Of a stretch of 64,000 nt of DNA, positions 7,761 through 46,655 are shown one piece after another. A program made the position numbers and the translations under genes. Position 1 is the first letter of the stretch; each line of letters opens with the position of its first letter. The notes under the pieces are model-generated. The model searched no databases and was not told where the DNA came from. It saw only the letters and a list, made by a program, of their open reading frames with translations. Location of the stretch: contig CAYPFM010000002.1 in the NCBI GenBank assembly GCA_964410185.1, positions 134,047-198,046 on the forward strand. Direction: 5' to 3'. This DNA comes from an uncultured Candidatus Saccharibacteria bacterium (lineage in GTDB: Bacteria; Patescibacteriota; Saccharimonadia; Saccharimonadales; JAUPVS01).

Positions 7761-8936
7761 CTAGTTCGTAAACCAACCGGTGATATGCTGCCAAAGCGTT
7801 GGTGCCTGGCTCGGGATGGTGGACGGTGTGTTATTGCTTTTAACAGCGGTACTGGCGCTGTTAGCGCTAGGATTGGGTGAGATCTGTTCACCAATCACCA
7901 CAAGGCGATTCAGTGAGGTGCCTGGTGGGTCACACGTGATTAAGGTAGCCGTCGCCGGCTTGTCGGTCGGCCCAAGCACCGAAACATCGTTTGGCTTAAC
8001 AACTTTACGGTCGTAGACGCGGTAGACATACCGTTTGCCGTTTTTAGTGAGCGTAAAGGTATCGCCAATCTGTAGCCGGTTTAGCAAGACAAAAGCGAAC
8101 TTATACTTCCCTTTGTTGAGAATATTATTACTGGAGTGGCCAAAAATGACGGTATTCCCCTGCTCTCCCGGCGATGACGTAGTGGAGTAATGAACCACAC
8201 CGTTTTCGAGCGAGTTTTGAATGGCGCTTTCGTCGATACTGTTTTGGTCGTATATGACAGGAATTTGGACGTTAATCTTGGGAATGATCACTTCGTTGGC
8301 ATTGCTGCTGGGTTGACTGCCATCGGCAATAATCGGGGTGTTACTGACAGTACGACTCGGGGTGATGAAGGGCGCGATGATCCGTTCGTTAAAGAACCCA
8401 AACAACATAATCATAATGGCAATGGAACCAATGCCGAGCCCAAATAATATCGACTGAAAGTGATGTTTGGCCTTGAGTTTACTACGGCTGTCGACGTGGC
8501 GCAGCAACTGCTTTTTGACCTGCCCGACCGTCCGCTGACTGGTTTTTTTATGGTGTGGCGCCGGCATTTCTTGAGGAGCCTCTTTGGCTTGTTTGGCCTT
8601 GGCGCTCTCGCTGTAGAACTCTTCCCAGACCTGGTGTTTCTCGTCATCTGGCAGGCCAAGATAGTACTGGTGCCAAGCCGTTTGAATCTCTGGCAAACTT
8701 TTACCGGAGTGACTTAGTTCGTACATGAACTTTTGATGTTTCGAACGATGACTGAGTCGAGCAACCTCGCGCTCTTCGTCTAGGGCATTTGGTTCATGAT
8801 GCTCCTTGGCCTCCTGAACGTACAAGGAGCTGATTTTTTGACGAATAACTTCTGCGGCCAATTCACCGGACGTGTCGTCAGACCCTTGGTTGGAGGGGTC
8901 GGCGTGCGCGGATTGAGGATTTGCTTCGTTCGTCAT
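7761..8936 (-). CDS. Sortase-family transpeptidase with long N-terminal cytoplasmic extension
   Basis: 391 aa; TVIFGHSS, ...TLITCDPPGT (catalytic TLxTC) and a TM helix before the catalytic domain. Confidence 0.85.
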   Translation of the reverse strand: MTNEANPQSAHADPSNQGSDDTSGELAAEVIRQKISSLYVQEAKEHHEPNALDEEREVARLSHRSKHQKFMYELSHSGKSLPEIQTAWHQYYLGLPDDEKHQVWEEFYSESAKAKQAKEAPQEMPAPHHKKTSQRTVGQVKKQLLRHVDSRSKLKAKHHFQSILFGLGIGSIAIMIMLFGFFNERIIAPFITPSRTVSNTPIIADGSQPSSNANEVIIPKINVQIPVIYDQNSIDESAIQNSLENGVVHYSTTSSPGEQGNTVIFGHSSNNILNKGKYKFAFVLLNRLQIGDTFTLTKNGKRYVYRVYDRKVVKPNDVSVLGPTDKPATATLITCDPPGTSLNRLVVIGEQISPNPSANSASTAVKSNNTPSTIPSQAPTLWQHITGWFTN

Positions 8937-15086: not shown

Positions 15087-15749
15087 TTAATGAGCCTCCT
15101 TGGTTGCTTGCAGATCGGCGACAATGACCAGTCGCTCAGTAAACGACCAGAACGGGGTGCAGGTGTAGAGCGTCAGCTGGGCGTTTGACGTATTATTCTC
15201 GACGGCGACGTCGGTTGCGGGTACTACCTTTGTCGTTCGTACCACGTAGTCATATTCGCGCCCTTGCCAATACACGATGATGTTGTCACCAACCGAAACT
15301 TTATCAAGATCATAAAAAACCGAGGGGCTGGTATAGGTGTATCGGTGTCCCACCAGGACGGTATTGCCGCCATTCGGTGGTGTTGAGGTCTTGGGACGAG
15401 CCCAGACGCCCTTATTCACGGTATAGGGGCTGGTGCCTTGCAGGATGGCTTGGTTGAGCACTAACTTAGGTATGACCAAACGATTATCTTGCGGCATGCC
15501 CTGCCGGGTGGCCTGTGGCGCGCTACTAGTAGCCGCCAGTTTACTTTGATATGGTAGCCCGGCACTGTGGTCGTGGCTCTGACGCCACAGATAGTTGAGT
15601 CGTGGCACTAACGGCAACCCAAAAATGTAGCCATTGATGAGCAATATCACCACCAGCAAACCAATGTTTATTTGGCGCAGCGATGGCTTGGTGAGCCGGC
15701 TTGTCGGCCGTTTTGGGGTTGATTTCTTTTTAGTGCTCATTACCGGCAT
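15087..15749 (-). CDS. Sortase-family transpeptidase
   Basis: 220 aa; N-terminal basic tail plus TM, TVLVGHRY, LTLYTCTP (TLxTC). Confidence 0.85.
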   Translation of the reverse strand: MPVMSTKKKSTPKRPTSRLTKPSLRQINIGLLVVILLINGYIFGLPLVPRLNYLWRQSHDHSAGLPYQSKLAATSSAPQATRQGMPQDNRLVIPKLVLNQAILQGTSPYTVNKGVWARPKTSTPPNGGNTVLVGHRYTYTSPSVFYDLDKVSVGDNIIVYWQGREYDYVVRTTKVVPATDVAVENNTSNAQLTLYTCTPFWSFTERLVIVADLQATKEAH

Positions 15750-19542: not shown

Positions 19543-20733
19543 TTATTGCTCTTGGGAGCGACCGCAGATGGGACAGGATTCTTCTTCTGTCATCAGCGCC
19601 AACCATCGTTGGGTGGCCGGCCACCATGGTTGGTAGTCTTTGTAGGCCACAAAGTCGGCTGCTTCGCGCAACCACCAACCAACTCGCCCGTAGATGCGCA
19701 GCTTACCCCACACCACTGACGCCCATCCTGGGCCGGTCGGCGTGACGTAGACTGGTAAACGTGGACGATACACCTGTGGGTCGCGACCATTGGCGCGACG
19801 CATCAAGTTGTGGGCGACAAACAAGGCGTTGTGTAAGGCTGTTTGGGCAACACCACTGTACTTGGTTTCGGCATTGTCACCAAGCACGTAGATGTCGTGT
19901 TCGGCCTGCAGGTATTGGTCGACCTGTACCTTGTGGTGATCGGTCATCGTAAAGCCGTTATCCTGGAAGAAGCTGTTGCAGGCGACGCCGGCCGTCCAAA
20001 CCACGGTGTGGCTATAGACCGGTTGTCCGTTAATAATGAGCGCATCGGCATTTTCGGCTTCAACCTTTTGGTTGGTATGAATGGCCACGCCTAGTTTGCG
20101 GAGGTGTCGGGCGGTGGCTCGGGCGACATCCTTGGGCATACGCGGCAAGATGCGCGGGGCGGCCTCGATGAGCTCAACGTGGATGGCACGATGTTTAACG
20201 CCGTGCGCTTTCATCAGCTGCTTGAGGTACTGCGGCAAAACGCCGGCTAGCTCCACGCCGGTTGGTCCAGCCCCCACAATGAGGTAATGAGCATCGGGTT
20301 TATGGTCGGTGCGTAGTTGGTCATGTAAATGCTGCTTCAGCCGCTCGGCCTCGGCGAGTGACTTGATGCCGTAGGCAAACTCTTGCAGGCCCGGAATGCC
20401 AAAGAAGTTGGTGGTCATGCCGAGGGCTAAAATCAGGCTGTCATATTTGATGGTGCCAGCCCCCTTGGTGAGGATTTCTTTTGATTCCCGCCGTAAGTGC
20501 GTGGCGCGAGCCTTGATAAAAGTAATGTCGTGATTGGCTAATAACTCGGAAAGCGGGATTTCGGAAACACGCCCGGCCCCACCGGTGGCAGTGTGGTAGA
20601 GCGACGGGTAATAACGGAAGTTATCTTCATCAGAAATTAAGGTGACGTCGAAGCGCTGGTCGGTGCTCAACTCGAGAGCAGCCTTGACCCCGCCGAAGCC
20701 GCCGCCAACAATTACAATCTGTTGTTTCATCAT
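19543..20733 (-). CDS. ndh: Type II NADH dehydrogenase-like FAD/NAD(P)-dependent oxidoreductase (NDH-2)
   Basis: 396 aa; IVIVGGGFGGVKAA (FAD GxGxxG), a second LIVGAGPTGVELAG (NAD) and VLGDNA. Confidence 0.8.
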   Translation of the reverse strand: MMKQQIVIVGGGFGGVKAALELSTDQRFDVTLISDEDNFRYYPSLYHTATGGAGRVSEIPLSELLANHDITFIKARATHLRRESKEILTKGAGTIKYDSLILALGMTTNFFGIPGLQEFAYGIKSLAEAERLKQHLHDQLRTDHKPDAHYLIVGAGPTGVELAGVLPQYLKQLMKAHGVKHRAIHVELIEAAPRILPRMPKDVARATARHLRKLGVAIHTNQKVEAENADALIINGQPVYSHTVVWTAGVACNSFFQDNGFTMTDHHKVQVDQYLQAEHDIYVLGDNAETKYSGVAQTALHNALFVAHNLMRRANGRDPQVYRPRLPVYVTPTGPGWASVVWGKLRIYGRVGWWLREAADFVAYKDYQPWWPATQRWLALMTEEESCPICGRSQEQ

Positions 20734-20775
20734 TTGGGTTTATTATACGCAAAAAAACAGGTAAGCTAAAGCGTA

Positions 20776-22428
20776 ATGGAAGAATTAATTCAAAAACTCA
20801 AACAACTTGGCTTTAGTGGCGAAACCGAGATGACCAGCGAAATTCTGGAGGCGTACAGTCACGACGCCTCAATGTTCGAAATGAAACCAAAGGCCGTGGT
20901 AGTGCCACGTAGTGCCCAAGATGTCGAAAAATTAGTCAGCTTGGTAGCCCAAGAAAAGAAGCATCACCCCGATCTTTCGGTCACGGCTCGTAGTGCGGGT
21001 ACCGATATGTCAGGCGGTGCCATCAATGATTCGATTATCGTCGACTTCAACAAACACTTCGGCAAAATTGAGTCTGTCACGGCGACGTCGGCACATGTTC
21101 AACCGGGTGTTTTCTACCGTGATTTCGAGCCCGCCACCTTTAAGCACGGCGCCCTCTTGCCTTCCTTCCCGGCGAGTCGTGAACTTTGTACGGTTGGTGG
21201 CATGGTCAGCAACAACTCAGGCGGCGAAAAGTCGTTAGAGTACGGCAAAACCGAAGACTTTGTTACCGAGCTGAAAGTTGTTTTTGCCGATGGCAATGAG
21301 TACACTGTTAAGCCACTGAACCGCCGTGAACTGGTCAAGAAGATGGCGCAAAAGGACTTCGAGGGCAGCCTATATAAGCAAACCTTTGAACTGATCGAAA
21401 AGCACTACGACGAAATTAAAGCTGCCAAACCGCAGGTCAGTAAGAATGCGACGGGCTACAACCTCTGGGATGTCTGGGACCGCGAGACCGGCATCTTTGA
21501 CCTCACCAAGCTCATCGTTGGCTCGCAGGGCACGCTGTGTCTGGTAACCGACATTCACTTCCGTCTTGTTCCCAAAACCGACTTTAGCGGCGTCTTGGTA
21601 TGCTTCATGAAGAACACCGACCAACTGGGTGACATTATCAATACCGTGATGGCACACAAGCCGGCCACCTTTGAATCGTTTGACAACTACACGCTGCAGC
21701 TGTCGATGAAGTTCTTCTTGTACTTCCACAAAACGCTGGGTTGGGCCAAGCTGGCCAAGCTGGGCATTCAGCTCATCCCCGATGCGTTAGTTCTTCTGAA
21801 GGGTATCCCCAAGCTGATTTTGCTGGTTGAATTTACCGGCGCCAGTCAACAAGAAGTCGACGACAAGATTCGAGCCATGCACGCCGAGCTGAAGCCGTAC
21901 AAGTTGCAAGCACTGGAGGACGATGATACCGAAGCCAAGGCTTGGAAGTTCCGGATTATGCGCCGCGAAAGCTTCAACCTGCTTCGCAAAAAAGTTAAAG
22001 ACAAGCACACGGCGCCATTTATTGATGACCTGGTCGTTCCCCCTCCCTATCTGCCTGAATTCCTGCCAAAACTCCGCCAGATTATTAACAAGTACAAGTT
22101 GATGGCGACGGTGGCAGGCCACATGGGTGATGGCAACTTCCATGTTATTCCCCTAATGAAGCTGGAAGATCCCAAAGAACGCGCCAAACTGACTCCAGCC
22201 ATGAAAGAGGTCAACGAGCTGGTATTGAAGTATCACGGCTCACTGTCTGGTGAGCATAATGATGGGCTGGTTCGGGGGCCATGGTTAGGCCGAATGTATG
22301 GGCCAAAGGTGTTGCAACTCTTTAAAGATACCAAAAACATTTTTGACGCTGATAACATCTTTAATCCGCACAAAAAGACCGACGCCAACTGGGATTACAG
22401 CTACAAACACATTCGCGACCACTTCTAG
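20776..22428 (+). CDS. FAD-binding oxidase (GlcD / D-lactate dehydrogenase-like, FAD_binding_4 + FAD-oxidase_C)
   Basis: 550 aa; VVVPRSAQDVEKLV, ARSAGTDMSGG, ...GHMGDGNFHV...GSLSGEHNDG. Confidence 0.75.
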   Translation: MEELIQKLKQLGFSGETEMTSEILEAYSHDASMFEMKPKAVVVPRSAQDVEKLVSLVAQEKKHHPDLSVTARSAGTDMSGGAINDSIIVDFNKHFGKIESVTATSAHVQPGVFYRDFEPATFKHGALLPSFPASRELCTVGGMVSNNSGGEKSLEYGKTEDFVTELKVVFADGNEYTVKPLNRRELVKKMAQKDFEGSLYKQTFELIEKHYDEIKAAKPQVSKNATGYNLWDVWDRETGIFDLTKLIVGSQGTLCLVTDIHFRLVPKTDFSGVLVCFMKNTDQLGDIINTVMAHKPATFESFDNYTLQLSMKFFLYFHKTLGWAKLAKLGIQLIPDALVLLKGIPKLILLVEFTGASQQEVDDKIRAMHAELKPYKLQALEDDDTEAKAWKFRIMRRESFNLLRKKVKDKHTAPFIDDLVVPPPYLPEFLPKLRQIINKYKLMATVAGHMGDGNFHVIPLMKLEDPKERAKLTPAMKEVNELVLKYHGSLSGEHNDGLVRGPWLGRMYGPKVLQLFKDTKNIFDADNIFNPHKKTDANWDYSYKHIRDHF

Positions 22429-22431
22429 CGA

Positions 22432-22881
22432 TTATGGGGTGACCGTAAAGGTCGACTGAATCTCGTCGTTTTTATGATCGTGAACCAAGAAGTCCTTGCC
22501 CGTTTGCGATAGGTTGATGGTGAATGACTGCTCCTTGCTGAGCACCTTGGTTTCGATGCCGTCATAAGGCGTGTGGGAGTCGTGTTTGCCAAAAGCGATT
22601 AGCCGGATGGCATCATCGCGGTTAGTTATGGTGAGAAGGTCGCATTGGTGAGCCTCAATGTGCTGCGGAGTAGCCTGGTCGTTTTCGATGTAGATCGTAT
22701 AATTGGTGGGATTAGCTTTGTTGCATTTTTGGCTGGCTTCCTTGCCGGCATAAAGTTGCTGTTGGGCAACGCGACTGGCCAGCAGGGCGGTAGCGGTGGC
22801 AACCAAAATAATAATCACAATGGTGGTTGGGCTTAAACTTTTGCGCTTACTGTGTTGTGGCTGTTGGGGTTCTTCTGTCAT
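22432..22881 (-). CDS. Membrane-anchored cupredoxin-like domain protein (paralog of CyoD C-terminal extension)
   Basis: 149 aa; one TM, then C-x-N..Y.I.I...ATPQHIEAHQCDLLTITNRDD..IAFG...LSQTG...FTVTP. The pattern aligns with residues ~125-220 of the upstream CDS. A 4-nt overlap places it in the cyo operon. Confidence 0.55.
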   Translation of the reverse strand: MTEEPQQPQHSKRKSLSPTTIVIIILVATATALLASRVAQQQLYAGKEASQKCNKANPTNYTIYIENDQATPQHIEAHQCDLLTITNRDDAIRLIAFGKHDSHTPYDGIETKVLSKEQSFTINLSQTGKDFLVHDHKNDEIQSTFTVTP

Positions 22882-23549
22882 CTCGCTGTTACCGTGAATT
22901 TGGCGATTGCCTTGGTGTTAAGTGGATTATAGTACGAATAGGTGCCGGTCTGATTGAGCGTCACCGTCTCGCTTTTACCTTTACGGATGGTGATGGTGGC
23001 CTGACCCGCGTAGGTGGTTGGGCTAGCGGGCGTACCAAACGTAATCTGGTGGCTGACACTATCCTGGTTGGTAAACGAAATTGTATCACAAAGTTCGGCC
23101 TGAATCTGCATGGGGCTGACAACACTGCCCAGCATGATTACCTGATGATTGGCCTTCGTGCCTTGGCAGGCACCCGTCTTGTTGCCTTCGACCTGCGGAA
23201 TGGCCTCGCCCTCGGCTAGCTGTTTGGCGGTGTCGGCTGGTGGCAGCATATTGTAGTGCAAGTGGCTCATGATGAACAAGGAGCCCCCGACCACAAAGGC
23301 AATAATGGCCACGGTGCCGGCAAAGAAAGCGACGTTATACAGCGGTTTTGGCCCCCTACCAAGGTGCAAGAAGTAGTAGACTTGTATTAGCACCTGCACT
23401 GTTGCGAGCCCAACAATAACGGCCAACAGATTTGTGGCCGTCGTCGATTTGTGCACTACCATGTAGTACGAAGCGGTCGTTAATAACAGACATAATACAA
23501 AGCCAGTAATATACGACCACACACTGGTTTCGGCAGGTTTACGGCTCAT
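22878..23549 (-). CDS. cyoD: Cytochrome o ubiquinol oxidase subunit IV (CyoD) fused to a C-terminal cupredoxin-like domain
   Basis: 223 aa, about twice the normal CyoD length. The N-terminal 3-TM CyoD region is YITGFVLCLLLT...QVLIQVYYFLHL. The C-terminal ~100 aa reads PMQIQAELCDTISFTNQDSVSHQITFG...LNQTG...FTVTAR. Confidence 0.75.
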   Translation of the reverse strand: MSRKPAETSVWSYITGFVLCLLLTTASYYMVVHKSTTATNLLAVIVGLATVQVLIQVYYFLHLGRGPKPLYNVAFFAGTVAIIAFVVGGSLFIMSHLHYNMLPPADTAKQLAEGEAIPQVEGNKTGACQGTKANHQVIMLGSVVSPMQIQAELCDTISFTNQDSVSHQITFGTPASPTTYAGQATITIRKGKSETVTLNQTGTYSYYNPLNTKAIAKFTVTAR

Positions 23550-24133
23550 ATAAAGGCCCTCAGATAAACAATAGTAAAGATAAAGATCCAGACGATGTCT
23601 AAGAAGTGCCAGTACAGGCTCAGTAGCCCGAGTTTACGCATCATCGATGGTGTGAGGCCTCGTTTGATGAGGAAGAAGAGGACGACCGCCATCCAGAGCA
23701 AGCCCAGGATGATGTGTAGCCCGTGGGTCCCAACCAGAACAAAGAACGACGACAAGAAGGCGCTGCTGCTCAGGGTGTGCCCTTCCCTTGCTAACTGCGC
23801 GAACTCAGTCAGCTCCATGCTCAAAAAGGCGAGGCCGAGCAAGAAAGTGACGCTAAACCAGGCCACAACCTGCTGTTTGTTGCCACGGCGGGCGGCAATC
23901 ATGGCCAGTCCGCAGGTAAAACTGCTGGTTAGCAATAGATAGGTCTCGGTCAATGCCAAGGGCAGACTAAATAGTTCGCGCCCAGACGGCCCACCGGCAG
24001 TGCTGTCGTGCAAAACGGCGTAGACAGCGAACAGGACGGCAAACATCAATAAATCGGTCATCAGGTACACCCAAAAGCCAAACATGGAACGTTCGTTGGC
24101 AGCGGCCTCGTGGTCTGCGACTAGTTTGCTCAT
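23546..24133 (-). CDS. cyoC: Cytochrome o ubiquinol oxidase subunit III
   Basis: Start MSKLVADHE at 24133 forms an ATGA overlap with the cyoB stop. FGFWVYLMTDLLMFAVLF and LYWHFLDIVWIFIF are typical subunit III helices. Confidence 0.9.
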   Translation of the reverse strand: MSKLVADHEAAANERSMFGFWVYLMTDLLMFAVLFAVYAVLHDSTAGGPSGRELFSLPLALTETYLLLTSSFTCGLAMIAARRGNKQQVVAWFSVTFLLGLAFLSMELTEFAQLAREGHTLSSSAFLSSFFVLVGTHGLHIILGLLWMAVVLFFLIKRGLTPSMMRKLGLLSLYWHFLDIVWIFIFTIVYLRAFI

Positions 24134-26217
24134 AATTCTCGCCACCTTCTGTGCTTGATGACACCAAACGCCCAACTAATCACGGTGCTGATGAATTCAC
24201 GCAGCCCCATATCGTGGTCACTATCCGGTTTGGCGGCGGCTTGGCGGAGCTGATCCTTTTTGATGCGAGCATTCTCGAGTTTCTCAACCTCGGCTGCCGT
24301 TAGGGTGTACTCAGTATCCTCGTTAAAAGTCCGGGCGATCACGCAAATAACAATTCCCAGAGCAGCGACAATAACCAGCCAGAGGATATTCCAAACAGCG
24401 CCAAAGCCAAACAAGAAGGCAAAGCCGGCGATGTATATGCCGGTGGCGATGTTCTTGGGCATGTGGATGTCCTCGTAGACTGGTTTGGTAATTCCCTGCT
24501 GCTTCATCTCCAAAAAGGCGTCACGGCTGCTTACCTGCGGGATGGTGACAAAGTTATAGAATGGCACTGGTGACGGTGTCGCCCATTCCAGAGAACGTCC
24601 ATCCCATGGGTCGCCGGTGGTGTCGGCCAGCTGGCGTTTTTGCATGAAGCTAGCGATAATCTGCACAAGTTGCAGAACCACCCCAGCCATAATGAGGATG
24701 CCGCCGCAAAGGGCGACGATAAAGAAAGCTCGCCAGCTGGTAGCGTCGTAATGATCCAGCCGTCGTGTTGCGCCCATGATTCCCAGTATGTACAGCGGGC
24801 CAAAGGCCATCCAAAAGCCAATCACCCAGCACCAAAAGGCGTAACGGCCGATTCGCTCGTTTAAGCGGAAGCCGGCGATCTTAGGGAACCAGTATGAAAT
24901 GCCGGCTAAAATCCCCCACAGAACACCACCAATCACCATGGTGTGGAAGTGTGCTACCAAGAAGAGGCTGTTGTGGAGTTGAAAATCAGCCGGTGGTTGA
25001 GCCAGCATCACGCCAGTCATACCGCCAACGGCGAAGGTGCCCACAAAGCCCAGGAACCACAGCATCGGCGTGGTGAACCGTATTCTTCCCTTGTAGAGGG
25101 TGGCGATCCAGTTAAATACCAGCACACTGGTTGGGATGGCGATTACCATGGTCATCAGGCCAAAAAAGGCGTTCACGTCGGCGCCAGCACCCATGGTAAA
25201 GAAGTGATGCAACCAAACCGACAAAGCAAAGAACGACACGCCAATCATGCCCAGGACGGCCGAGGTGTAACTGGCGATGCGTTTGCCGCTGAAGGTCGAG
25301 ACGACTTCGGAGAAGATACCAAAGGCTGGCAACATCAAGATGTAAACCTCGGGGTGACCCCACATCCAGATTAGGTTGGTGTACATCATGGCGTTACCAC
25401 CCGCGGTGGTGGTAAAGAAGTGGGTGCCCAAGGTACGGTCGAAGGTTAATAAGAACAAGGTGGCGGTTAAGAGCGGAAACACACAGACGGCCATAACCAT
25501 GCTGCACAACGAGCCCCACGTAAAGAGCGGCATCATGCGGAGCTTCATGCCAGGGGCGCGCATCTTAAAGATGGTAACGATAAAGTTAATTGCACCCAGG
25601 GTGGTACCGATGCCCGAAATCTGTAGCGCCCAGACCATGTAGTCAACACCGACACCAGGGCTAAACTCCCTGCCCGACAGTGGCGCCACGCCCAGCCAAC
25701 CGGTAGCGGCGTACTTACCACCAAAGATAAAGAACACATTGACCATAATTACGCCGGCAACATACAGCCAGAAGCCTAAGGTATTCAAAAAGGGCGAAGC
25801 CAAGTCGCGGGCACCAATTTGTAGCGGGACGATGTAGTTGATGAGCCCAAACACAAAGCCCATGGCCACAAAAAAGACCATGATGTTACCGTGGGCGGTA
25901 AAGAGTTGCTGGAAGTGATCGGCCGACAAAAAGCCGTGCGCCGATCCGGCGGAAAGTGATTGCTGTAGCCAGATCATGATGGCGTCAAGGCCGCCGCGCA
26001 ACAGCATGAAGCCAGCGACGATAAAGTACATAATGCCAATCTTCTTGGGGTCAACCGTGGTTAGCCACTCTTTCCAGAGCCACTTCCATCGCTTCAGGTA
26101 GGTTAAGACAAAGACTAAAAAGAGGCCGGAACCAATAAAGAAGACTGCTCCACCGATAGTGAACCACTCGTGTGGCAGCGATTCCCAGGTTAAATTACCA
26201 ACCAGCAATTCTTTCAT
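24130..26217 (-). CDS. cyoB: Cytochrome o ubiquinol oxidase subunit I (heme-copper oxidase)
   Basis: 695 aa; WMWGHPEVYILMLPAFG and HHFFTMGAG...FLVAHFH are heme/CuB ligand contexts. Confidence 0.95.
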   Translation of the reverse strand: MKELLVGNLTWESLPHEWFTIGGAVFFIGSGLFLVFVLTYLKRWKWLWKEWLTTVDPKKIGIMYFIVAGFMLLRGGLDAIMIWLQQSLSAGSAHGFLSADHFQQLFTAHGNIMVFFVAMGFVFGLINYIVPLQIGARDLASPFLNTLGFWLYVAGVIMVNVFFIFGGKYAATGWLGVAPLSGREFSPGVGVDYMVWALQISGIGTTLGAINFIVTIFKMRAPGMKLRMMPLFTWGSLCSMVMAVCVFPLLTATLFLLTFDRTLGTHFFTTTAGGNAMMYTNLIWMWGHPEVYILMLPAFGIFSEVVSTFSGKRIASYTSAVLGMIGVSFFALSVWLHHFFTMGAGADVNAFFGLMTMVIAIPTSVLVFNWIATLYKGRIRFTTPMLWFLGFVGTFAVGGMTGVMLAQPPADFQLHNSLFLVAHFHTMVIGGVLWGILAGISYWFPKIAGFRLNERIGRYAFWCWVIGFWMAFGPLYILGIMGATRRLDHYDATSWRAFFIVALCGGILIMAGVVLQLVQIIASFMQKRQLADTTGDPWDGRSLEWATPSPVPFYNFVTIPQVSSRDAFLEMKQQGITKPVYEDIHMPKNIATGIYIAGFAFLFGFGAVWNILWLVIVAALGIVICVIARTFNEDTEYTLTAAEVEKLENARIKKDQLRQAAAKPDSDHDMGLREFISTVISWAFGVIKHRRWREL

Positions 26218-27161
26218 TATTGTCCCTCTGTTTCGGATTCGGTGTGATGGCTGTGACCATCCCCATACTTCACAAGCACTGTATCATAGAGTCCGGCCGG
26301 GGCGGTAGAGTAAAACGCTACCGGATTGTTTTCGCTTGGGGTGAGCAGTGTTTTGTAGGCGGCGAAGTCCAGTGGATTGGCTGAGTGTTTAACATCCTGC
26401 ACCCAATTATCGAAGTCTTCTTGCGAGCCCACCCGAGTAGTGAACTTCATGTTGGCAAAGCCCTCACCGTTAATTTCGGCGGCTTGCCCGGTGTAATCAC
26501 CATTGGTATCGGCCATCAAGTTGAGCTGGTTGGAATGTCCTGTCATGGCATAGAGTTGCCCGCCAAGATGTGGAATCCAGAAAGAGTTCATGGGCGCCTC
26601 GTCGGCAGTGAGGTTGAAGTGTACTGGTGTATCGGCCGGGATTTCTACAAAATTAACAGTAGCGATGTTTTGCTCTGGATAGATAAACAGCCACTTCCAG
26701 CGCAAGGCGATGACCTGGATGGTGAGCGGCTTGGTGTCGGAAGAAATTGCCTTGTGGGGGTCAAGCTTGTGGGTCGCTGGAATCATCACCGAAGCGAGAA
26801 GTAGCAAGACAATACATGGAATCACCCATAAACTAAAGGCCGAGAATTTACCCTGCCCTACTTTGGTGTCGCGCTTGGCGTGTTCGTTTGATGCTCGATA
26901 TTTCCAGGCAAAAAAGTACAGCATGGAGAGGGTTGGGATGGCCACTGCTAGTAAGATGCCCACAACCGTAATAATAAGGCGTGCTTGCTGATCGGCGATT
27001 AATCCCTTGGGGTTGAGTAAGACTACATCCTTGCCGCGCAGCAGCACTACCATCAGGAGCGCGAGTGCGGACAGTCCCAAAACTATTACTCGTGCAGATG
27101 TACCCTGACGCGACGGTTTGTGCCGTTTCATTACCATAACCTCATTACTACCATCATACAC
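26217..27161 (-). CDS. cyoA: Ubiquinol oxidase subunit II (no CuA ligands); start possibly 27131
   Basis: 314 aa; two TM, then a cupredoxin domain NSFWIPHLGGQLYAMTGHSNQLNL...AEINGEGFANMKF, which lacks the CxExCGxxHxxM CuA motif as quinol oxidases do. Confidence 0.88.
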   Translation of the reverse strand: MYDGSNEVMVMKRHKPSRQGTSARVIVLGLSALALLMVVLLRGKDVVLLNPKGLIADQQARLIITVVGILLAVAIPTLSMLYFFAWKYRASNEHAKRDTKVGQGKFSAFSLWVIPCIVLLLLASVMIPATHKLDPHKAISSDTKPLTIQVIALRWKWLFIYPEQNIATVNFVEIPADTPVHFNLTADEAPMNSFWIPHLGGQLYAMTGHSNQLNLMADTNGDYTGQAAEINGEGFANMKFTTRVGSQEDFDNWVQDVKHSANPLDFAAYKTLLTPSENNPVAFYSTAPAGLYDTVLVKYGDGHSHHTESETEGQ

Positions 27162-27247
27162 CCAAAGGCCTTATGGTAACTAGACTATAATCGGTCAACC
27201 TTGCTGGACGCCCCATGGCTTTTAGCTTATGCTAGCACTACACTCGT

Positions 27248-28117
27248 GTGATAGGATTGCAATTGCTAAAAAAATACTACGACCTCACCAAACCCGGCAT
27301 TATCTACGGCAACGTCCTGAACGCCACCGCCGGGTTTTTATTGGCTTCACGCTATCACATCAATCTGTTATTGTTGGCAACTACCCTGCTTGGCACTTCG
27401 TTGGTGGTGGCATCAGGCTGTGTCTTTAATAACTATCTAGATCGCAACATCGACAAAAAGATGTCCCGTACCAAGCAGCGTGCGCTGGTAATCAAGAGTA
27501 TATCGGTACGGAATGCGCTGATTTTTGCTACTGTTCTGGGTATTCTTGGGTTTACGGTGTTGGCGGTGTTCACCAACTGGCTAGTGGTATTGATTGGTCT
27601 GATTGGTTTTGTGGATTATGTGATTGTCTATGCCTACGCCAAGCGGCATTCGGTGCACGGCACGCTGGTGGGCAGTATCTCGGGCGCGGTGCCCATCCTC
27701 GCCGGTTATTGCGCGGCCAGTGGACAGTTGGACGGCGCGGCCGTGATTGCCTTCTTGCTGCTGGCGGCTTGGCAGATGCCCCACTTTTACGGTATTGCCA
27801 TGTATCGCTACAACGACTACAAACGAGCCGGCCTGCCGGTGATGCCAGTGGCTCGTGGCATGCTAGCAACCAAACTCCAGACCCTCATTTACATTGTGAT
27901 CTTTATGGCCATCGCCAGCCTACTCACCATCTACCATTACACCGGCTACTGCTACTTGGTTGTTATGTTGCTGGTCGGCTTGGCCTGGTTTGTTAAGGGG
28001 GTCCGTTTGTTCAACATCAAGGATGACAAGCTGTGGGGTCGCAAAATGTTCCTATTCTCTTTAATTGTGGTGCTGGTGATGGCAGTGATGCTATCGCTTG
28101 GTGCGCGACTTCCCTGA
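27248..28117 (+). CDS. cyoE: Protoheme IX farnesyltransferase (heme O synthase)
   Basis: 289 aa (GTG start); LTKPGIIYGNVLNATAGFLLA and NNYLDRNIDKKMSRTKQRAL (UbiA-type Asp-rich motif). Confidence 0.9.
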   Translation: MIGLQLLKKYYDLTKPGIIYGNVLNATAGFLLASRYHINLLLLATTLLGTSLVVASGCVFNNYLDRNIDKKMSRTKQRALVIKSISVRNALIFATVLGILGFTVLAVFTNWLVVLIGLIGFVDYVIVYAYAKRHSVHGTLVGSISGAVPILAGYCAASGQLDGAAVIAFLLLAAWQMPHFYGIAMYRYNDYKRAGLPVMPVARGMLATKLQTLIYIVIFMAIASLLTIYHYTGYCYLVVMLLVGLAWFVKGVRLFNIKDDKLWGRKMFLFSLIVVLVMAVMLSLGARLP

Positions 28118-30289
28118 TTTCCGGCTTGGTTTTGCGGGTGGGGTTGGCTCATCTTCGGCAGCGCCGTCAATGTGCAGCTTAGGCAGCCAGTTGAGCCATC
28201 GTGGGAACCACCAGTTGGCCTTACCAAGTAATTCCATACTAGAAGGTACTAAGATCATTCGAACGATGCTGGCGTCCAACAGGACGGCCACAGCCAGGCC
28301 CAAACCAAATTCTTTAATGATGCGGTTGTCGTTCAGTACAAAACTAGCAAAGACGGTTACCATAATCGCCGCCGCGGCAGTGATCACGCGCGCCGTGTAG
28401 TTGAGACCATCGGCCACGGCGGTGGCGTTATCGCCGGTGCGATCATATTCTTCTTTAATGCGCGACAGCAAAAAGACCTCGTAGTCCATCGACAGGCCAA
28501 ACAGAATGGCGAACATAATCATTGGCACAAAGCTCTCGATGGGACCGGTGTGCCCGAGGCCGAGCAAGCTCGACCCGTAACCCCACTGGAATACGGCCAC
28601 TAAAACACCATAGGCCGCACCAATCGAGAGTAGATTCATAATAACGGCCTTGAGTGGTACCAGGACGGAGCGGAAAACAACTAATAAAAGGATGAAGCTG
28701 AGTACCAAGACGATGCCAATAAATAGCGGCAGGCGGCTTTGGAGGAGGTCGGCCAGGTCATCGAAACTGGCGGTAATACCGCCAACGTGCACGTTGGCCG
28801 GTGCTACCTGGCGGATTGACTTTATCAACTGGCTGGTGGCTTGGTCTTGTGGCGAGGTAGTAGGAATGACTTGCATGACTGCGGCTGTCATTTGTTGGTT
28901 GGGCACGGCTGGCGAGACCGATTGTACGCCCGGCATAGCCGCTAACTTGGCCTTGAACTCGGTGAGCTCGGCCATACTTTGATTGGCTTGCCCGGCTGGT
29001 AGCTCGGCCACTAGCAACAGTGGACCGTTGGCACCAACGCCAAAGCCCTGCCCGATTAAGTCGTAGGCTCGGCGGGTGGTATCGCTGGTGGGACGACTAC
29101 TGGCATCGGACGAACCCAGCCGCATTGAAAACAACGGTATGGTCAGGATGAGCAAAAAGCCGAGGCTGAGCACCATGGCCGGCCACGGATTGCGCTGCAG
29201 GAACCGACTCCAACGATACCAGACGCTGTGCTCCTTGGTTTTGGTCTTGCCAAAATGCGGCAGTCGCAAACTGTCGATCTTGAGGCCAACAAAGCCCAGA
29301 ATGGCTGGCAACAAGGTGATCGAAGCCAGCATGGTTATGAGGACAACCGTGGCCGAGCCAATCCCCATACCACTAATAAAGCTGACGCCGATCAGCACCA
29401 TACCAAGCAACGAAATCACCACGGTTGTGCCAGCAAACAGCACCGACCGACCGGCTGTATCAATGGCCTTCACGACAGCCTGTTCGGGGTCACGTCCTTC
29501 CTCGAGGTTCTGGCGGTAACGCGTCACAATAAACAGCGCGTAATCAATTCCCACCCCGATGCCAATCATGCTGGCCAGCTCGATGGTAATGTCTGGCAAG
29601 GCAATAAAGTGCGACAGCAGCTTCACAAAGGCTACGCCAATGCCGATACCGAACAAGGCCATGGTAATTGGTAGTCCCATTGCTAACACCGAACCAAAGC
29701 TAATTAACAGGATGAAGATAGCCGCAATAATACCGTACAGCTCGCTGTTACCCGGCTTCATTTGCGTTTGGAAGATGTCGCCACCGAGTTCGATCTCGAC
29801 TCCCTTGATTTGGTTACTGGCGACAATGTCACGGATCTGCTTGACGCTGCTCTGCGGTATCGCCTCCCCCGACTGGTCGAATTGAATCTGGGCATAGGCG
29901 ATTTGCCCATCTCGACTGACCTGCTGCGCCCCGGCCGGCGTAAACGGACTGACAATGCCAGAGACATGCGGCACCTTGAGAACCTCGGCAAAGATGTAAT
30001 CCATGTCCATTTGGATGTTCATATCGGTAGCGCCGGTAGGCACTTTAAAGACGATCTGCCCGGTGCCGCCCGCCAAAGCTGGGAAACGTTGCTGGAGAAT
30101 GTCGACCGCCTGCTGCGAGTCGGTCTTACTGGTGCGGAACTGGCTACTAAAGTTATCACCGTAGTGCGTCGCGGCAAAGTTAATGCCCACCAGTATAGCG
30201 ACCCAGATGGCCAAAACGATCCAACGGTGACGATACGAAGTACGAGCCAGCTTTTTTAACATATTAGTTTCATAATAGCAGAAAGCCAT
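28091..30289 (-). CDS. MMPL-family (RND superfamily) transporter
   Basis: 732 aa; duplicated 6-TM modules with GIGVDYALFIVTRYRQNL and GLSMDYEVFLLSRIKEEY motifs. Confidence 0.9.
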   Translation of the reverse strand: MAFCYYETNMLKKLARTSYRHRWIVLAIWVAILVGINFAATHYGDNFSSQFRTSKTDSQQAVDILQQRFPALAGGTGQIVFKVPTGATDMNIQMDMDYIFAEVLKVPHVSGIVSPFTPAGAQQVSRDGQIAYAQIQFDQSGEAIPQSSVKQIRDIVASNQIKGVEIELGGDIFQTQMKPGNSELYGIIAAIFILLISFGSVLAMGLPITMALFGIGIGVAFVKLLSHFIALPDITIELASMIGIGVGIDYALFIVTRYRQNLEEGRDPEQAVVKAIDTAGRSVLFAGTTVVISLLGMVLIGVSFISGMGIGSATVVLITMLASITLLPAILGFVGLKIDSLRLPHFGKTKTKEHSVWYRWSRFLQRNPWPAMVLSLGFLLILTIPLFSMRLGSSDASSRPTSDTTRRAYDLIGQGFGVGANGPLLLVAELPAGQANQSMAELTEFKAKLAAMPGVQSVSPAVPNQQMTAAVMQVIPTTSPQDQATSQLIKSIRQVAPANVHVGGITASFDDLADLLQSRLPLFIGIVLVLSFILLLVVFRSVLVPLKAVIMNLLSIGAAYGVLVAVFQWGYGSSLLGLGHTGPIESFVPMIMFAILFGLSMDYEVFLLSRIKEEYDRTGDNATAVADGLNYTARVITAAAAIMVTVFASFVLNDNRIIKEFGLGLAVAVLLDASIVRMILVPSSMELLGKANWWFPRWLNWLPKLHIDGAAEDEPTPPAKPSRKSGKSRTKR

Positions 30290-32381: not shown

Positions 32382-33488
32382 GTGGAAACAAGACTGCTCC
32401 GCCCCAAATTCAAGTTGCTCAGCATTGTATCTTTTTTGATATTGATTGCCATTGCCATTGGTACGCTGTGGCTGAGCCAGGTTGCAGCCAGTGCGGTACG
32501 ACAAAAGAATGCTAACCAGTTTGCTTGGGATAGTCACATTATCAGTAATCACCTCCAGAACAACCTTGAGGGGTACAGCAACGCACTGTATGGTGGCCGG
32601 GCCTTTATTCTGAACAGTAATGTTGTGACATCTGCCGAGTGGACTGGTTATTACCGCAATCAGGACATCTTCAACCGGTTAAACGGTCTTAACAGCATCT
32701 CCTATATCCAGCTCGTACCGGCGGCAAGCGTTGACCAGTTTGTGGCTCAAAAGCGGCAGCAACCGGAAATTGGCCCCAGCTATACGGTCAGCCCGGCTGG
32801 TAGCCGTGGAGTTTATGCCTTGGGAGCGTTGGCGGTTGGCGCGACCGATAACCTCAAGCCGAATGGTTTCGATGTCTACTCAACTCCTGATAGGCGCGCC
32901 GTCTATCAGTTGGCTCAAGATACTGGTTTACCGGCTGCTTCCGGCGAAACAAACTTTACTGATGGCAATAAGGGAATGTTCATCGCCCTGGCACTTAATC
33001 GCGAAGGTGCGACGGCTGGGTACGTGGTTGCGGCGGTACACAGCAACAATTTCTTCTCGACGGTTATCGACGAGACGACTCTTGGAGTGGTGAGCGCCAG
33101 GGTGATTGATGTCACCGACTCCAAAAAGCCCAACATGCTCTATTCGACCGCTAAATGGAATGATCATTCCAACGGCATGAGCCGAACGGACAAGATCACC
33201 TTTGCGGGCCGTCAGTGGAAGGTTGAATATCAGGCGCCCAAGAACTACACCCACCATTTGATCTCTACAGTCCTTCCCTATGTTGTTTTGTTCTGTGGGC
33301 TACTGTTGATATCATCACTAGGAATGATGTTCTACATCTTCTTCAAGACTGTGCCAATCTCGAAGCTACAGTTTGCACCAGGCGAAGAAAAGGGCAAGCC
33401 CCACTCTGGCGTGAAGACCAAGTCAACCGCCAAAGCCAGCGATCCGCACCACATTGTGGTGACCACCAATGTCGATCTTGACCCCTAG
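32382..33488 (+). CDS. CHASE-domain membrane protein without recognisable output domain
   Basis: 368 aa (GTG start); TM, then a periplasmic region FAWDSHIISNHLQNNLEGYSNALYGGRAFILNSNVVTSAEWTGYY...SISYIQLVP (CHASE-like), a second TM and a short K-rich tail. Confidence 0.55.
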   Translation: METRLLRPKFKLLSIVSFLILIAIAIGTLWLSQVAASAVRQKNANQFAWDSHIISNHLQNNLEGYSNALYGGRAFILNSNVVTSAEWTGYYRNQDIFNRLNGLNSISYIQLVPAASVDQFVAQKRQQPEIGPSYTVSPAGSRGVYALGALAVGATDNLKPNGFDVYSTPDRRAVYQLAQDTGLPAASGETNFTDGNKGMFIALALNREGATAGYVVAAVHSNNFFSTVIDETTLGVVSARVIDVTDSKKPNMLYSTAKWNDHSNGMSRTDKITFAGRQWKVEYQAPKNYTHHLISTVLPYVVLFCGLLLISSLGMMFYIFFKTVPISKLQFAPGEEKGKPHSGVKTKSTAKASDPHHIVVTTNVDLDP

Positions 33489-42389: not shown

Positions 42390-42983
42390 CTATTTGCCGT
42401 AACGTTCAGAGGCAGTTTGCCAGTTGGCGATGTGCCACCAGGCGGCCACATAATCGGCTCGATTATAGGTATAATCGAGGTAGTAAGCATGCTCCCAGAC
42501 ATCGAGACCCAAAATCGGTTCGGGCTGGCCAAAATTGATCGGCGTGTCTTGGTTTGGCGTGGTCGTGATAGACAGGTCTGGCATCAGCCAAGCCCAACCA
42601 GCTCCAAAGATACCTAACGATGTCTTGGTAAACTCATCCATATAGGCTTGAAAGGAGCCGTATTTGGCCACAATGTCTTCGGCCAATTTGCCGGTTGGTT
42701 CGCCGCCATTATCGGGTGTCAAAAATTGCCAAAACAGCGAGTGGTTGTAGTGTCCGCCACCGAAGTTACGGAGAGCGTTGCGGACGTGCTCGGGAGCTGC
42801 GTCCAGGTTGCTTAATAATTCAACAATTGATTTGTCTTTTAGTTCCGGTGCCTGGTCAATGGTGGCATTGAGTTTATCAACGTAAATTTGGTGATGTTTG
42901 GTATGATGCATCTCCATGATGGCCTTGCTGACATACTTGCCGAGGGCATCGTATTCAAAATCGAGGGCTGGTAACGTAAACAT
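42390..42983 (-). CDS. sodA: Fe/Mn superoxide dismutase
   Basis: MFTLPALDFEYDAL...HHTKHHQIYV...DVWEHAYYLDY. ATG 42983 is preferred over the track start 43019 (TTG). Confidence 0.93.
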   Translation of the reverse strand: MFTLPALDFEYDALGKYVSKAIMEMHHTKHHQIYVDKLNATIDQAPELKDKSIVELLSNLDAAPEHVRNALRNFGGGHYNHSLFWQFLTPDNGGEPTGKLAEDIVAKYGSFQAYMDEFTKTSLGIFGAGWAWLMPDLSITTTPNQDTPINFGQPEPILGLDVWEHAYYLDYTYNRADYVAAWWHIANWQTASERYGK

Positions 42984-43015
42984 GAGCTTAGTGTAGTGCT
43001 TGGGTTCGGGCGGTG

Positions 43016-43147
43016 TCAAACCAGCTGATGCTTAAGCTTGCGCCAGCGGCGGGCTTGCAGTCGGGCGGCGCGCTGCTGCCACTCCGGTTGGACGTCTTCG
43101 TAATCATCCTTGAAGCTTTCATAGTTGCGAGGTGTAATTTTGACCAT
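43016..43147 (-). CDS. Possible 43-aa basic micro-protein
   Basis: ATG 43147 is preceded by GGGAGA: MVKITPRNYESFKDDYEDVQPEWQQRAARLQARRWRKLKHQLV. Confidence 0.3.
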   Translation of the reverse strand: MVKITPRNYESFKDDYEDVQPEWQQRAARLQARRWRKLKHQLV

Positions 43148-43242: not shown

Positions 43243-43884
43243 TTAGATTAAACGAGCTTGCAGTTTGGCCAGATCTTTGATGAGAATGCCCTGTCGACTA
43301 GCACTTACCAAGTCTTCGGCGATGAGCTTGCGCATCTCGCGGTTGATGGTCTCACGACTGAGACCGGTATGGGTTGCGAGCTCACTTTCGTTCATCTTCA
43401 CAAAGCAGCCGTTTTTGGTGCGATTTTCGCCCAGTCGGTTGGCTTGCAGGATGAGCTCGTAGAGGACTCGTTGCTCGGCGGTGCTCCCCATCAGGCGGAC
43501 CATTCGGCCCAGAATGCCACTCGTGCCTTTGTAGACACGGCTCAGGAGGTCGTACATGACATCCGGATTCTCCTTAATAAAGGCGACCACCGCTTTGGGG
43601 GGCGCAGCCTGGTAGCTCAGGGGTGTTATGGATTCAAAGAAGTGCGGGTTGGGCGTCTTATTAATCGCCCATGACATCGGGAAAAAACTACCGGCTCGGA
43701 ACCGGTTAACGACAATTTCGTCACCCCGCGCAGAAACGCTGTATTCGCGAACTTCGCCTTCCAAAAGATGGTAGACGTGCTCCGGATCTTCGTTAGCCAG
43801 AATGAGCAACTGCCCCTTACGTGCCTGTTGCGTTGGGTAGCCACTGAAGAAGCGATTAATTTTGCCTGAAACAGTGCTTGTCAC
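43243..43884 (-). CDS. Crp/Fnr-family transcriptional regulator
   Basis: 213 aa; a cNMP-binding-like beta-barrel, then the HTH ESELATHTGLSRETINREMRKL. Confidence 0.85.
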   Translation of the reverse strand: MTSTVSGKINRFFSGYPTQQARKGQLLILANEDPEHVYHLLEGEVREYSVSARGDEIVVNRFRAGSFFPMSWAINKTPNPHFFESITPLSYQAAPPKAVVAFIKENPDVMYDLLSRVYKGTSGILGRMVRLMGSTAEQRVLYELILQANRLGENRTKNGCFVKMNESELATHTGLSRETINREMRKLIAEDLVSASRQGILIKDLAKLQARLI

Positions 43885-45797: not shown

Positions 45798-46655
45798 TTA
45801 TAGCAAATAGACGTACAGCAAGGCCATCGTCACCACAAAGCCGGCGAACCAGTTAATCTTGATGAAGCGCTTCCAGGCGGCGTTAGAGGTGGCAGCGTCC
45901 TTTTCGGTAACACTAATATATGGCCAAATGTTAGCGATGTAGCAAAGATTGACCGCTCCAACGATCAGCCCTAACCAGCCAAAGTACAGCATGATCAGGC
46001 CAGATGCGGCGTACAGGACGGCCGCAAAGCGGACCGTTTGTTTGGCGCCAATGACGGTCGCAATTGAACCAATGCCAGCGGCCTTATCGGACGTGATGTC
46101 CTGAACAGCGCCAAAGGCGTGACTGGCCATTCCCCACAAAAAGAACGACCCGACCATGACGGCATAGGCTGGTTGATAATGACTAAACGTCAGTGCGTAG
46201 ACCAGCGGCCCAACAAAGTGGATGCTGGAGGTCATCGAGTCGATAAACGGCCGTTCTTTAAAGCGCAGTTTGGGCAGGCTGTAGGCGAGTACCATGAACA
46301 TTACAAAGGCCAGCACGGCCGAGCCGACGGCCGTGCTTTGGGCGAACAAAAATATCAAGAATGGTATACACAGCGACACCGAAGCCACCAAGGTAAGCTT
46401 GTGGGTCGACTTGGCCAGCTTAGCGCCCTCTACCCCGCCCTTGCGCGGATTGAGCATATCCGACTCGTAGTCAAAGACGTCATTCACACCGTACATCAAC
46501 AGGTTATACGGAATTAAGAAGAAGACGGTGCCAACGACAAGGGTGGCATCGACCGTTCGGGTGGTCATAAAATAGCCGCCGGCAAACGGGTAGGCCGTAT
46601 TGATCCACGATATCGGCCGTGACGTTACGAAGAGATATTTAATCTTTGTTAGCAT
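45798..46655 (-). CDS. crtEb: UbiA-family prenyltransferase, lycopene elongase-like (CrtEb/LyeJ type)
   Basis: 285 aa; NDVFDYESDMLNPRKGG Asp-rich motif; multi-TM. It is the last gene of the crt operon and overlaps the cyclase subunit gene by 17 nt. Confidence 0.7.
   Translation of the reverse strand: MLTKIKYLFVTSRPISWINTAYPFAGGYFMTTRTVDATLVVGTVFFLIPYNLLMYGVNDVFDYESDMLNPRKGGVEGAKLAKSTHKLTLVASVSLCIPFLIFLFAQSTAVGSAVLAFVMFMVLAYSLPKLRFKERPFIDSMTSSIHFVGPLVYALTFSHYQPAYAVMVGSFFLWGMASHAFGAVQDITSDKAAGIGSIATVIGAKQTVRFAAVLYAASGLIMLYFGWLGLIVGAVNLCYIANIWPYISVTEKDAATSNAAWKRFIKINWFAGFVVTMALLYVYLL

Follow-up and report, generated by a model that had tools for sequence, protein, structure and literature searches.

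A bo3-type quinol oxidase lineage in Saccharimonadales that lacks the lysine and glutamate of the lower K-pathway

A 64,000-nucleotide stretch of an uncultured Candidatus Saccharibacteria genome (contig CAYPFM010000002.1 of assembly GCA_964410185.1, positions 134,047 to 198,046; hereafter the window) contains a cytochrome bo3-type quinol oxidase (cyo) operon in which two residues of the lower K-pathway, Lys362 of subunit I (CyoB) and Glu89 of subunit II (CyoA) in E. coli numbering, are replaced by leucine and alanine. The replacements are shared by a clade of oxidases from the Candidate Phyla Radiation (CPR), and the residues that form the catalytic core are retained. We consider it probable, at about 0.6, that the enzyme is a working O2-reducing quinol oxidase that would receive the protons of the reductive phase by a changed route. 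The source genome comprises 1.087 Mb in 34 contigs and is 97.4% complete, with the window on contig 2; near-identical database proteins carry names that place it in Saccharibacteria (Saccharimonadales). The absences reported below have the scope of this one 97%-complete draft genome. Genes were called from a listing of open reading frames (ORFs) together with profile searches (Pfam, NCBIfam).

The window CyoB reads IPTSVLVFNW where that of E. coli reads IPTGVKIFNW, with Leu366 in place of Lys362, and CyoA reads GKFSAFSLW for NKVEAVVW, with Ala108 in place of Glu89. Because the CTG codon of Leu366 is two base changes from AAG and the replacement is common to all relatives, a sequencing error at the Lys362 position was ruled out. 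Among the 120 closest database proteins, which belong to the Lys-free clade, this position is occupied by Leu in 117, Ile in two and Val in one; in a second CPR clade, whose members are 56-63% identical to the window CyoB, it is Lys in 120 of 120. In 15 of 17 Lys-free operons a non-acidic residue stands at the position of Glu89; E. coli and the five Lys-type CPR operons that were examined (G027, G038, G012, G018 and G562) all keep Glu89. That Glu89 is free of constraint only where the lysine has been lost was counted in favor of a changed proton route. Asn365 also becomes variable within the Lys-free clade. The residue-by-residue check covered 16 fetched operons and 240 database proteins; the remaining genomes were typed by identity.

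Further changes are found elsewhere in subunit I. Along the D-channel, S145 and residue 204 (Thr in E. coli, and listed as a polar D-channel residue in a paper on the A. baumannii bo3 oxidase) have become Gly in the Lys-free clade, and N108, Y125 and S138 are new invariant polar residues. In the window protein, R80 of E. coli is replaced by Trp. Helix VII carries six fixed changes. On the long stem of the Lys-free clade 39 changes became fixed, and several of these affect the lining of the D-channel. The sequence-only reading had taken the operon for a plain E. coli-like CyoABCD, which does not hold for an enzyme with Lys362 and subunit II Glu89 replaced and the D-channel lining altered. As background only, we used 150 representatives of heme-copper oxidases from a 50%-identity library, which holds no close CyoB. 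At the aligned column 53 of them are not Lys, although a few of these are truncated fragments with unreliable alignment, and this ruled out that Lys362 is universal in A-like oxidases. The non-Lys representatives checked by name were all from uncultured metagenome-assembled genomes (MAGs) of Actinomycetota, Gemmatimonadaceae and Thermoplasmata, and none belonged to the CyoB family. Among the distant A-like representatives (P0138-P0270), Gln occurs in fusions of subunits I and III of about 650-860 amino acids (aa), and others have Leu, Ile or Val.

The remainder of the catalytic machinery is conserved. The operon encodes the same four core subunits as that of E. coli, with a heme O synthase gene beside it, and the six histidine ligands of CyoB (H106, H284, H333, H334, H419 and H421) are all kept and are invariant in the clade. 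Tyr288 is present in 120 of 120 members of the Lys-free clade, and the His-Tyr cross-link is predicted accordingly from the alignment; the cross-link tyrosine together with the His3 CuB site is considered to be a signature of O2 reductases (PMC11214002). The D-channel residues D135, N124, N142 and E286 are invariant in the clade. Of the upper K-path, T359 and S299 are kept in the window CyoB, and T352, T359, S299 and Y288 are essentially invariant in the clade. In pairwise comparisons of cyoB from the clade, dN/dS (the ratio of nonsynonymous to synonymous substitution rates) amounts to 0.05-0.06 and dS approaches saturation; this low ratio, with the invariant catalytic residues, indicates strong purifying selection. 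CyoA (230 bits to E. coli CyoA) has no Cys or His where the CuA ligands would be, the region reading GQAAEINGEGFANM in the alignment to E. coli, which agrees with the earlier proposal of a quinol-dependent oxidase. The quinol-site residues R71, D75, H98 and Q101, whose inspection had also been proposed, are all present in the window protein as R74, D78, H101 and Q104. They had been expected to predict the use of ubiquinol or menaquinol, but because both CPR clades read R/D/H/Q, they do not discriminate between the two. In the Lys-type CPR clade, the His98 position of the quinol site is variable (H 93, Q 15, T 10, M 2), and in the Lys-free clade it is invariant. CyoB and CyoA fall under the NCBIfam equivalog cutoffs, a difference from the E. 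coli enzyme (TIGR02843, 937 against 1020; TIGR01433, 251 against 266), and CyoC and CyoD score above theirs (TIGR02842, 245.7 against 223.75; TIGR02847, 82.8 against 81.45).

CyoB matches were found in 191 of 401 genomes of the order Saccharimonadales and in only 11 of 301 genomes across the phylum. Seventy full-length matches are at least 68% identical to the window protein, in the range of the Leu-type, and most others are 55-63% identical, in the range of the Lys-type. The tallies over 401 genomes include five unpublished genomes, of which G307, G340, G342 and G352 fall into the Leu-type range and G280 into the other; these five enter into no other claim. Most genomes carry either the Lys-type or the Leu-type, and a few carry both (G086, on C37 and C62; G263, on C1 and C60). 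In a FastTree phylogeny, all Lys-free CPR CyoB proteins form one clade (support 1.0), the sister of which is the Lys-type CPR clade (0.999), and E. coli-like CyoB lies outside both. The tree, whose non-CPR members were E. coli and five CyoB representatives only, thus placed the oxidase in one of two sister CPR clades, but the donor lineage outside CPR that the sequence-only reading had also hoped to obtain from such a tree was not identified. Within the Lys-free clade two Gln forms branch first, followed by the Leu forms, which share S145G, 204G and F138S. The codons at the Lys362 position are AAA or AAG (Lys), CAG (Gln) and CTG or TTG (Leu), which would fit a replacement of Lys by Gln and then by Leu in single-base steps (AAG>CAG>CTG). 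Both oxidase types adjoin the same ndh and glcD-like genes, and the heme O synthase gene is retained in the operons examined. From the shared ndh/glcD neighborhood and the presence of mostly one type per genome, we argue that the two types have the same physiological role.

In the working that we propose, the type II NADH dehydrogenase (NDH-2), and probably also the GlcD-like 2-hydroxyacid dehydrogenase, would reduce quinone, and the oxidase would hand the electrons to O2. Acquired heme B would be farnesylated to heme O, and both heme and quinone would be borrowed, most likely from the host. The lower K-pathway (Lys362 and Asn365 of subunit I, Glu89 of subunit II) would have been given up, and the protons that formerly used it would reach the site by another route. 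One candidate is a remodelled D-channel (S145G, 204G and the new N108, Y125 and S138); the other is a new lower entry near helix VII (F311A, G312S). A working O2 reductase is favored by the conservation of the upper K-path together with the replacement of the Lys-type by the Leu-type beside NDH-2. In addition, an ATP-synt_ab gene pair about 2 kb beyond the end of the window, called as an F-type ATPase gene pair, was taken as support. Several points weigh against this proposal. We know of no biochemically characterised A-type oxidase without the lysine, and the other non-Lys variants found all come from uncultured MAGs. No cofactor uptake system was identified, and quinone reduction by the GlcD-like enzyme is putative. 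Furthermore, in the cytochrome c oxidase of R. sphaeroides the K362M mutation abolishes oxidase turnover, according to the citation of Vygodina 1998 in PMC7601700.

The main rival reading is that the enzyme, without the K-pathway, could not sustain the reductive half of the O2 cycle. In vivo it would then serve chiefly to reduce H2O2 with quinol, as a peroxidase, or would scavenge O2 very slowly, and it would protect an oxygen-exposed fermenter without conserving energy. The same passage of PMC7601700 on Vygodina 1998 reports that the oxidase-dead K362M enzyme retains its peroxidase activity, which survives because the peroxidase half-cycle uses the D-channel only, and in the Lys-free clade the D-channel gate is likewise invariant while the lower K-path is lost. 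Superoxide dismutase is encoded, searches of the genome for catalase, rubrerythrin and glutathione peroxidase were negative, and O2 scavenging was the first published reading of such an operon (Kantor 2013, as cited in PMC6031116). However, one peroxiredoxin is encoded in the genome, and the invariance of T359, S299 and T352 would be unexpected if the upper K-path were dead. That the Leu-type takes the place of the Lys-type beside NDH-2 suggests that the two do equivalent work and carry a substantial flow of electrons, and a four-subunit proton-pumping scaffold would be costly for a trace substrate. We therefore regard a peroxidase or slow scavenger as unlikely, though to be taken seriously. 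That the enzyme is an ordinary bo3 oxidase working as in E. coli, with a neutral change from Lys to Leu, would agree with the score of 814 bits to E. coli CyoB, with the identical metal ligands, quinol site and D-channel gate, and with the 53 of 150 broad representatives (including the unreliable fragments) that are not Lys. Yet the lysine is kept without exception in the sister clade and in E. coli within the CyoB family, Glu89 and Asn365 lose constraint exactly where it is lost, the Lys-free stem is long, with its many fixed changes reaching into the D-channel lining, and the literature defines the A-family by its two conserved channels (PMC11214002); an unchanged mechanism thus appears improbable.

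Two further explanations were considered. The loss of an essential residue and the lack of detected cofactor biosynthesis genes could be those of a decaying or non-functional relic operon. The sequence-only reading had itself pointed to lost heme or CuB ligands, or frameshifts in CyoB, as marks of a pseudo-operon; the ligands are intact, and neither frameshifts nor internal stops were found. With a dN/dS of about 0.05, catalytic residues invariant across the 120 clade members and the heme O synthase kept in the operons examined, a pseudo-operon was ruled out, and we consider any form of relic very improbable. Contamination from another bacterium during binning or assembly might be suspected from one clade member that is labelled Limnocylindrales in NCBI. 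Against it stand the even guanine-cytosine content over the 64-kb window, the position of the operon within a 240-kb contig and the recurrence of CyoB, with conserved neighbors, in nearly half of the genomes of the order (191 of 401), so that contamination is scarcely credible.

The module itself is not new, as the sequence-only reading had correctly remarked. Starr 2018 (PMC6031116) and Nicolas 2021 (PMC8407418) described the combination of ndh, cyo and cyoE, noted that the pathways for quinone and heme are missing, and put forward the idea that both are scavenged from an outside source. The cyo operons of soil Saccharibacteria such as 'Ca. Teamsevenus rhizospherense' (Starr 2018, Nicolas 2021, Kantor 2013) belong to the same module, with NDH-2, cyoABCD and heme O synthase accompanied by an oxidoreductase and a 'blue-copper protein', and with quinone and heme biosynthesis lacking. 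In these papers the oxidase is taken for a standard bo3 enzyme that pumps protons (PMC6031116, PMC8407418). Starr 2018 noted an unspecified 'discrepancy in the functional residues', which was ascribed to evolutionary distance, and placed K-channel marks in a supplementary image (PMC6031116). This was the only paper that turned up in the literature on the K-channel and Saccharibacteria, and in the literature searched we found no statement of the loss of Lys362 or Glu89, of two CPR clades or of the CyoD fusion described below. A natural comparison is the canonical CyoABCDE with Lys that other Saccharimonadales and Patescibacteria carry (G027 and G562 are examples), named cytochrome o ubiquinol oxidase in NCBI. 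It shares the ndh/glcD neighborhood and the kind of host genome and forms the sister clade, but it keeps Lys362, Glu89, Asn365, S145 and S204, its CyoD is plain, and its genes are ordered as in E. coli. The R. sphaeroides K362M mutant is likewise an A-family enzyme in which the D-channel is intact and a hydrophobic residue replaces the K-channel lysine; however, the change in the window is ancient and fixed and is accompanied by many co-evolved substitutions, unlike that of the oxidase-dead, peroxidase-active laboratory mutant.

The published case for some aerobic respiratory capacity in soil Saccharibacteria assumes an enzyme like E. coli bo3, and the Lys-free lineage amounts to about a fifth of the Saccharimonadales genomes sampled, on identity grounds. 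In this lineage a Lys/Glu pair whose mutation inactivates model oxidases has been lost while the rest of the enzyme is under strong selection. For bioenergetics, nature has here provided an experiment on the ability of an A-family oxidase to function without the K-pathway, in which Lys, Gln and Leu forms are available as graded intermediates. For CPR biology, the answer decides whether these symbionts draw energy from O2 or do no more than detoxify it. In either case heme and quinone must come from a partner. A bolder proposition is that the oxidases annotated under 'aerobic respiration' in a large share of soil and groundwater CPR bacteria are natural A-family enzymes without a K-pathway, either with a rebuilt D-channel that supplies all protons or as quinol peroxidases or uncoupled O2 scavengers in vivo. 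We consider this to be speculative and rather doubtful; if the peroxidase or the uncoupled scavenger were true, the organisms would not respire in the textbook sense.

The features of the locus are as follows (window coordinates).

19543 to 20733, minus strand: NDH-2 (type II NADH dehydrogenase), 396 aa; Pyr_redox_2, 3.7e-47
20776 to 22428, plus strand: GlcD / D-lactate / D-2-hydroxyglutarate dehydrogenase-like FAD enzyme, 550 aa; FAD_binding_4 and FAD-oxidase_C
22432 to 22881, minus strand: fifth operon gene, membrane-anchored His-rich cupredoxin-fold protein, 149 aa
22878 to 23549, minus strand: whole CyoD ORF, 223 aa
22878 to 23219, minus strand: cupredoxin-fold domain at the CyoD C-terminus (residues about 111-223); weak plastocyanin and Cupredoxin_1 matches
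23220 to 23549, minus strand: membrane part of CyoD (subunit IV), three helices; COX4_pro, 1.2e-13
23546 to 24175, minus strand: CyoC (subunit III); TIGR02842, 245.7 bits, cutoff 223.75
24130 to 26217, minus strand: CyoB (subunit I), Lys-free type, 695 aa; 814 bits to E. coli 1FFT chain A
25120 to 25122, minus strand: CTG codon of Leu366, at the position of the E. coli K-channel Lys362
26217 to 27161, minus strand: CyoA (subunit II), without CuA site and without lipobox Cys; COX2 and COX_ARM
26838 to 26840, minus strand: codon of Ala108, at the position of E. coli CyoA Glu89 (K-channel entrance)
27248 to 28117, plus strand: heme O synthase (CyoE/CtaB), divergent from cyoA; NF003348; UbiA family, 5e-58

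The NDH-2, the GlcD-like flavoenzyme, the cyo operon and the divergent cyoE that the sequence-only reading had named are all intact at their coordinates by the ORF listing and the profiles, and the start and stop codons overlap as it had described (at 26217, 23546-23549 and 22878-22881, by 1 to 4 nt). Its 'cyoABCD' span of 22432 to 27161 is indeed a complete oxidase operon but contains five ORFs and not four genes only. The listed TTG start of cyoC gives an overlap of 46 nt with cyoB, and thus the real start may lie further downstream. Two differences from E. coli are that cyoE is divergent and not the last gene of the operon, and that CyoA has no lipobox. A scan for promoters and terminators gave a number of sites not above that in shuffled sequence.

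The fifth ORF and the C-terminal part of CyoD, both absent from the E. coli operon, had been overlooked in the earlier reading. The length of CyoD, 223 aa, reflects its fusion to an additional domain of about 110 aa; the AlphaFold2 (AF2) model of CyoD shows three helices followed by a beta domain. This domain and the product of the fifth gene, which overlaps the cyoD stop by 4 nt, are paralogous and have a conserved Cys pair; the 149-aa protein has an N-terminal transmembrane segment, the Cys pair and the motifs FGKHDSHTPYDG and VHDH. For the 149-aa protein, the AF2 model of the cupredoxin-fold domain has a pLDDT (predicted local distance difference test score) of 88, and Foldseek matched it to amicyanin, plastocyanin and purple cupredoxin with probability 1.0 and TM-scores of 0.6-0.68; the Pfam Cupredoxin_1 scores are under the gathering cutoffs. 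Although the fold is that of the type-1 cupredoxins, the His-Cys-His-Met ligands of the type-1 site were not found: there is no Cys ligand or C-x-H-x-M loop, FHDH stands in the C-terminal loop instead, and the Cys pair lies elsewhere. Most members of the family have the His-rich motifs FGxHxxxHxxYxG and FHDH and, unlike type-1 cupredoxins, are anchored to or fused with an oxidase subunit. Aligned with other genera, which carry FGxHxxxHxxYAG and FHDH at these places, the CyoD domain of the window has FGTPASPTTYAG and YSYYNP; in this genus the fused copy has lost the His motif, and the free membrane-anchored paralog keeps the His residues. The cupredoxin-fold domain and the His-rich paralog probably bind metal, and the topology of CyoD and the signal-anchor of the paralog suggest an outward orientation for both.

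Within the order, 12 of 12 Leu-type operons have the fusion, and four of four Lys-type operons lack it. However, five Lys-free operons from other classes of Patescibacteria have a plain CyoD, and a strict tie between the fusion and the loss of the lysine was thus ruled out. The cupredoxin-fold parts are accessory, were added later and only in Saccharimonadales, and are not necessary partners of the loss. A word-index homolog search with the 149-aa protein gave three matches only, and a search of a protein atlas gave one Saccharimonadota cluster only.

Beside the quinol-dependent oxidase stand two candidate quinone reductases, as had been proposed. Both dinucleotide motifs (GxGxxG) are visible in NDH-2, which has Pyr_redox_2 and Pyr_redox domains (two dinucleotide-binding folds). 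Among the top PDB matches its closest solved relatives are B. subtilis YjlD (7e-46), with an alignment that covers up to residue 324 of 396, and then the NDH-2 of C. thermarum and S. aureus. The GlcD-like enzyme scores 1.7e-29 for FAD_binding_4 and 1.8e-43 for FAD-oxidase_C. All of its NCBIfam equivalog scores are far under the cutoff, the best being with the N-terminal half of YdiJ, and its relatives in PDB are glycolate oxidase, D-LDH, LctD and D2HGDH. No Fe-S domain of a GlcF-type partner was found within this protein or adjoining it. Its relatives that adjoin ndh and cyo are 64-80% identical to it, and the NDH-2 gene adjoins cyo in related genomes, whether their oxidase is of the Lys-type or of the Leu-type. 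The linkage of these genes, which had been considered notable for this genome, is thus conserved across the lineage.

With regard to the cofactors, the sequence-only reading had seen no quinone or heme biosynthesis gene in the window. A UbiA-family prenyltransferase and a polyprenyl synthase are in fact present there, but both belong to a carotenoid cluster. The whole-genome inventory of men, ubi and hem genes that it had suggested found no pathway markers and bore out the dependency: ALAD, ferrochelatase, MenB and MqnA/MqnD gave no match in the genome, and for UbiE there were only marginal generic methyltransferase matches and no real UbiE. No cytochrome bd was found in the genome, and no heme A synthase (CtaA) in it or in four relatives, which suggests heme B and heme O as the cofactor set. 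The heme O synthase scores above its cutoffs (NF003348, 351.5 against 285; TIGR01473, 271 against 210). The UbiA family has two members in the genome, cyoE and a PRK13105 prenyltransferase; the latter lies inside a crtE-crtB-crtI-cyclase cluster and was ruled out as MenA or UbiA. Since this gene belongs to carotenoid synthesis, the dependence on outside heme and quinone stands. The organism only converts acquired heme B to heme O and makes no quinone, and because neither tetrapyrrole nor quinone is made, the two cofactors have to be supplied externally, most probably by the host.

The carotenoid cluster (45798-50632, minus strand) is complete, with a polyprenyl synthase, a phytoene synthase-like gene, a CrtI-type desaturase, a lycopene-cyclase-domain ORF and the PRK13105 prenyltransferase. 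The lycopene-cyclase-domain ORF is at 46907-47221, and an overlapping ORF at 46833-47159 has no family match. The layout presumably recalls that of the C50-carotenoid clusters of Actinobacteria, which are the usual hosts of Saccharibacteria. Superoxide dismutase (42390-43019) and a Crp/Fnr regulator (43243-43884) are, like this cluster, present where the earlier reading had placed them.

Some other genes of the window and genome were observed. An MMPL/MmpL3-like RND (resistance-nodulation-division) transporter gene (28091-30289, minus strand) is convergent with cyoE, the 3' end of which it overlaps by 27 nt. Such a gene does not adjoin cyo in 20 of 21 related loci searched; in the exception (L046), a weak MMPL-like match of 26% identity lies about 1.5 kb from cyoA. 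Three pairs of ATP-synt_ab (alpha/beta-type) genes occur in the 1.09-Mb genome (C2:200338-204346, C4:34395-37299 and C1:41493-44564). A CHASE-domain sensor protein (32382-33488, plus strand) is encoded in this reduced genome, and two sortases (7761-8936 and 15087-15749) and a DUF11 surface protein are encoded near its gene. Finally, an MBL-fold (metallo-beta-lactamase fold) hydrolase (51936-53069, minus strand) scores above the NCBIfam cutoff for the guanitoxin-biosynthesis hydrolase GntH (388 against 333 bits), an unexpected name for a Saccharibacteria gene.

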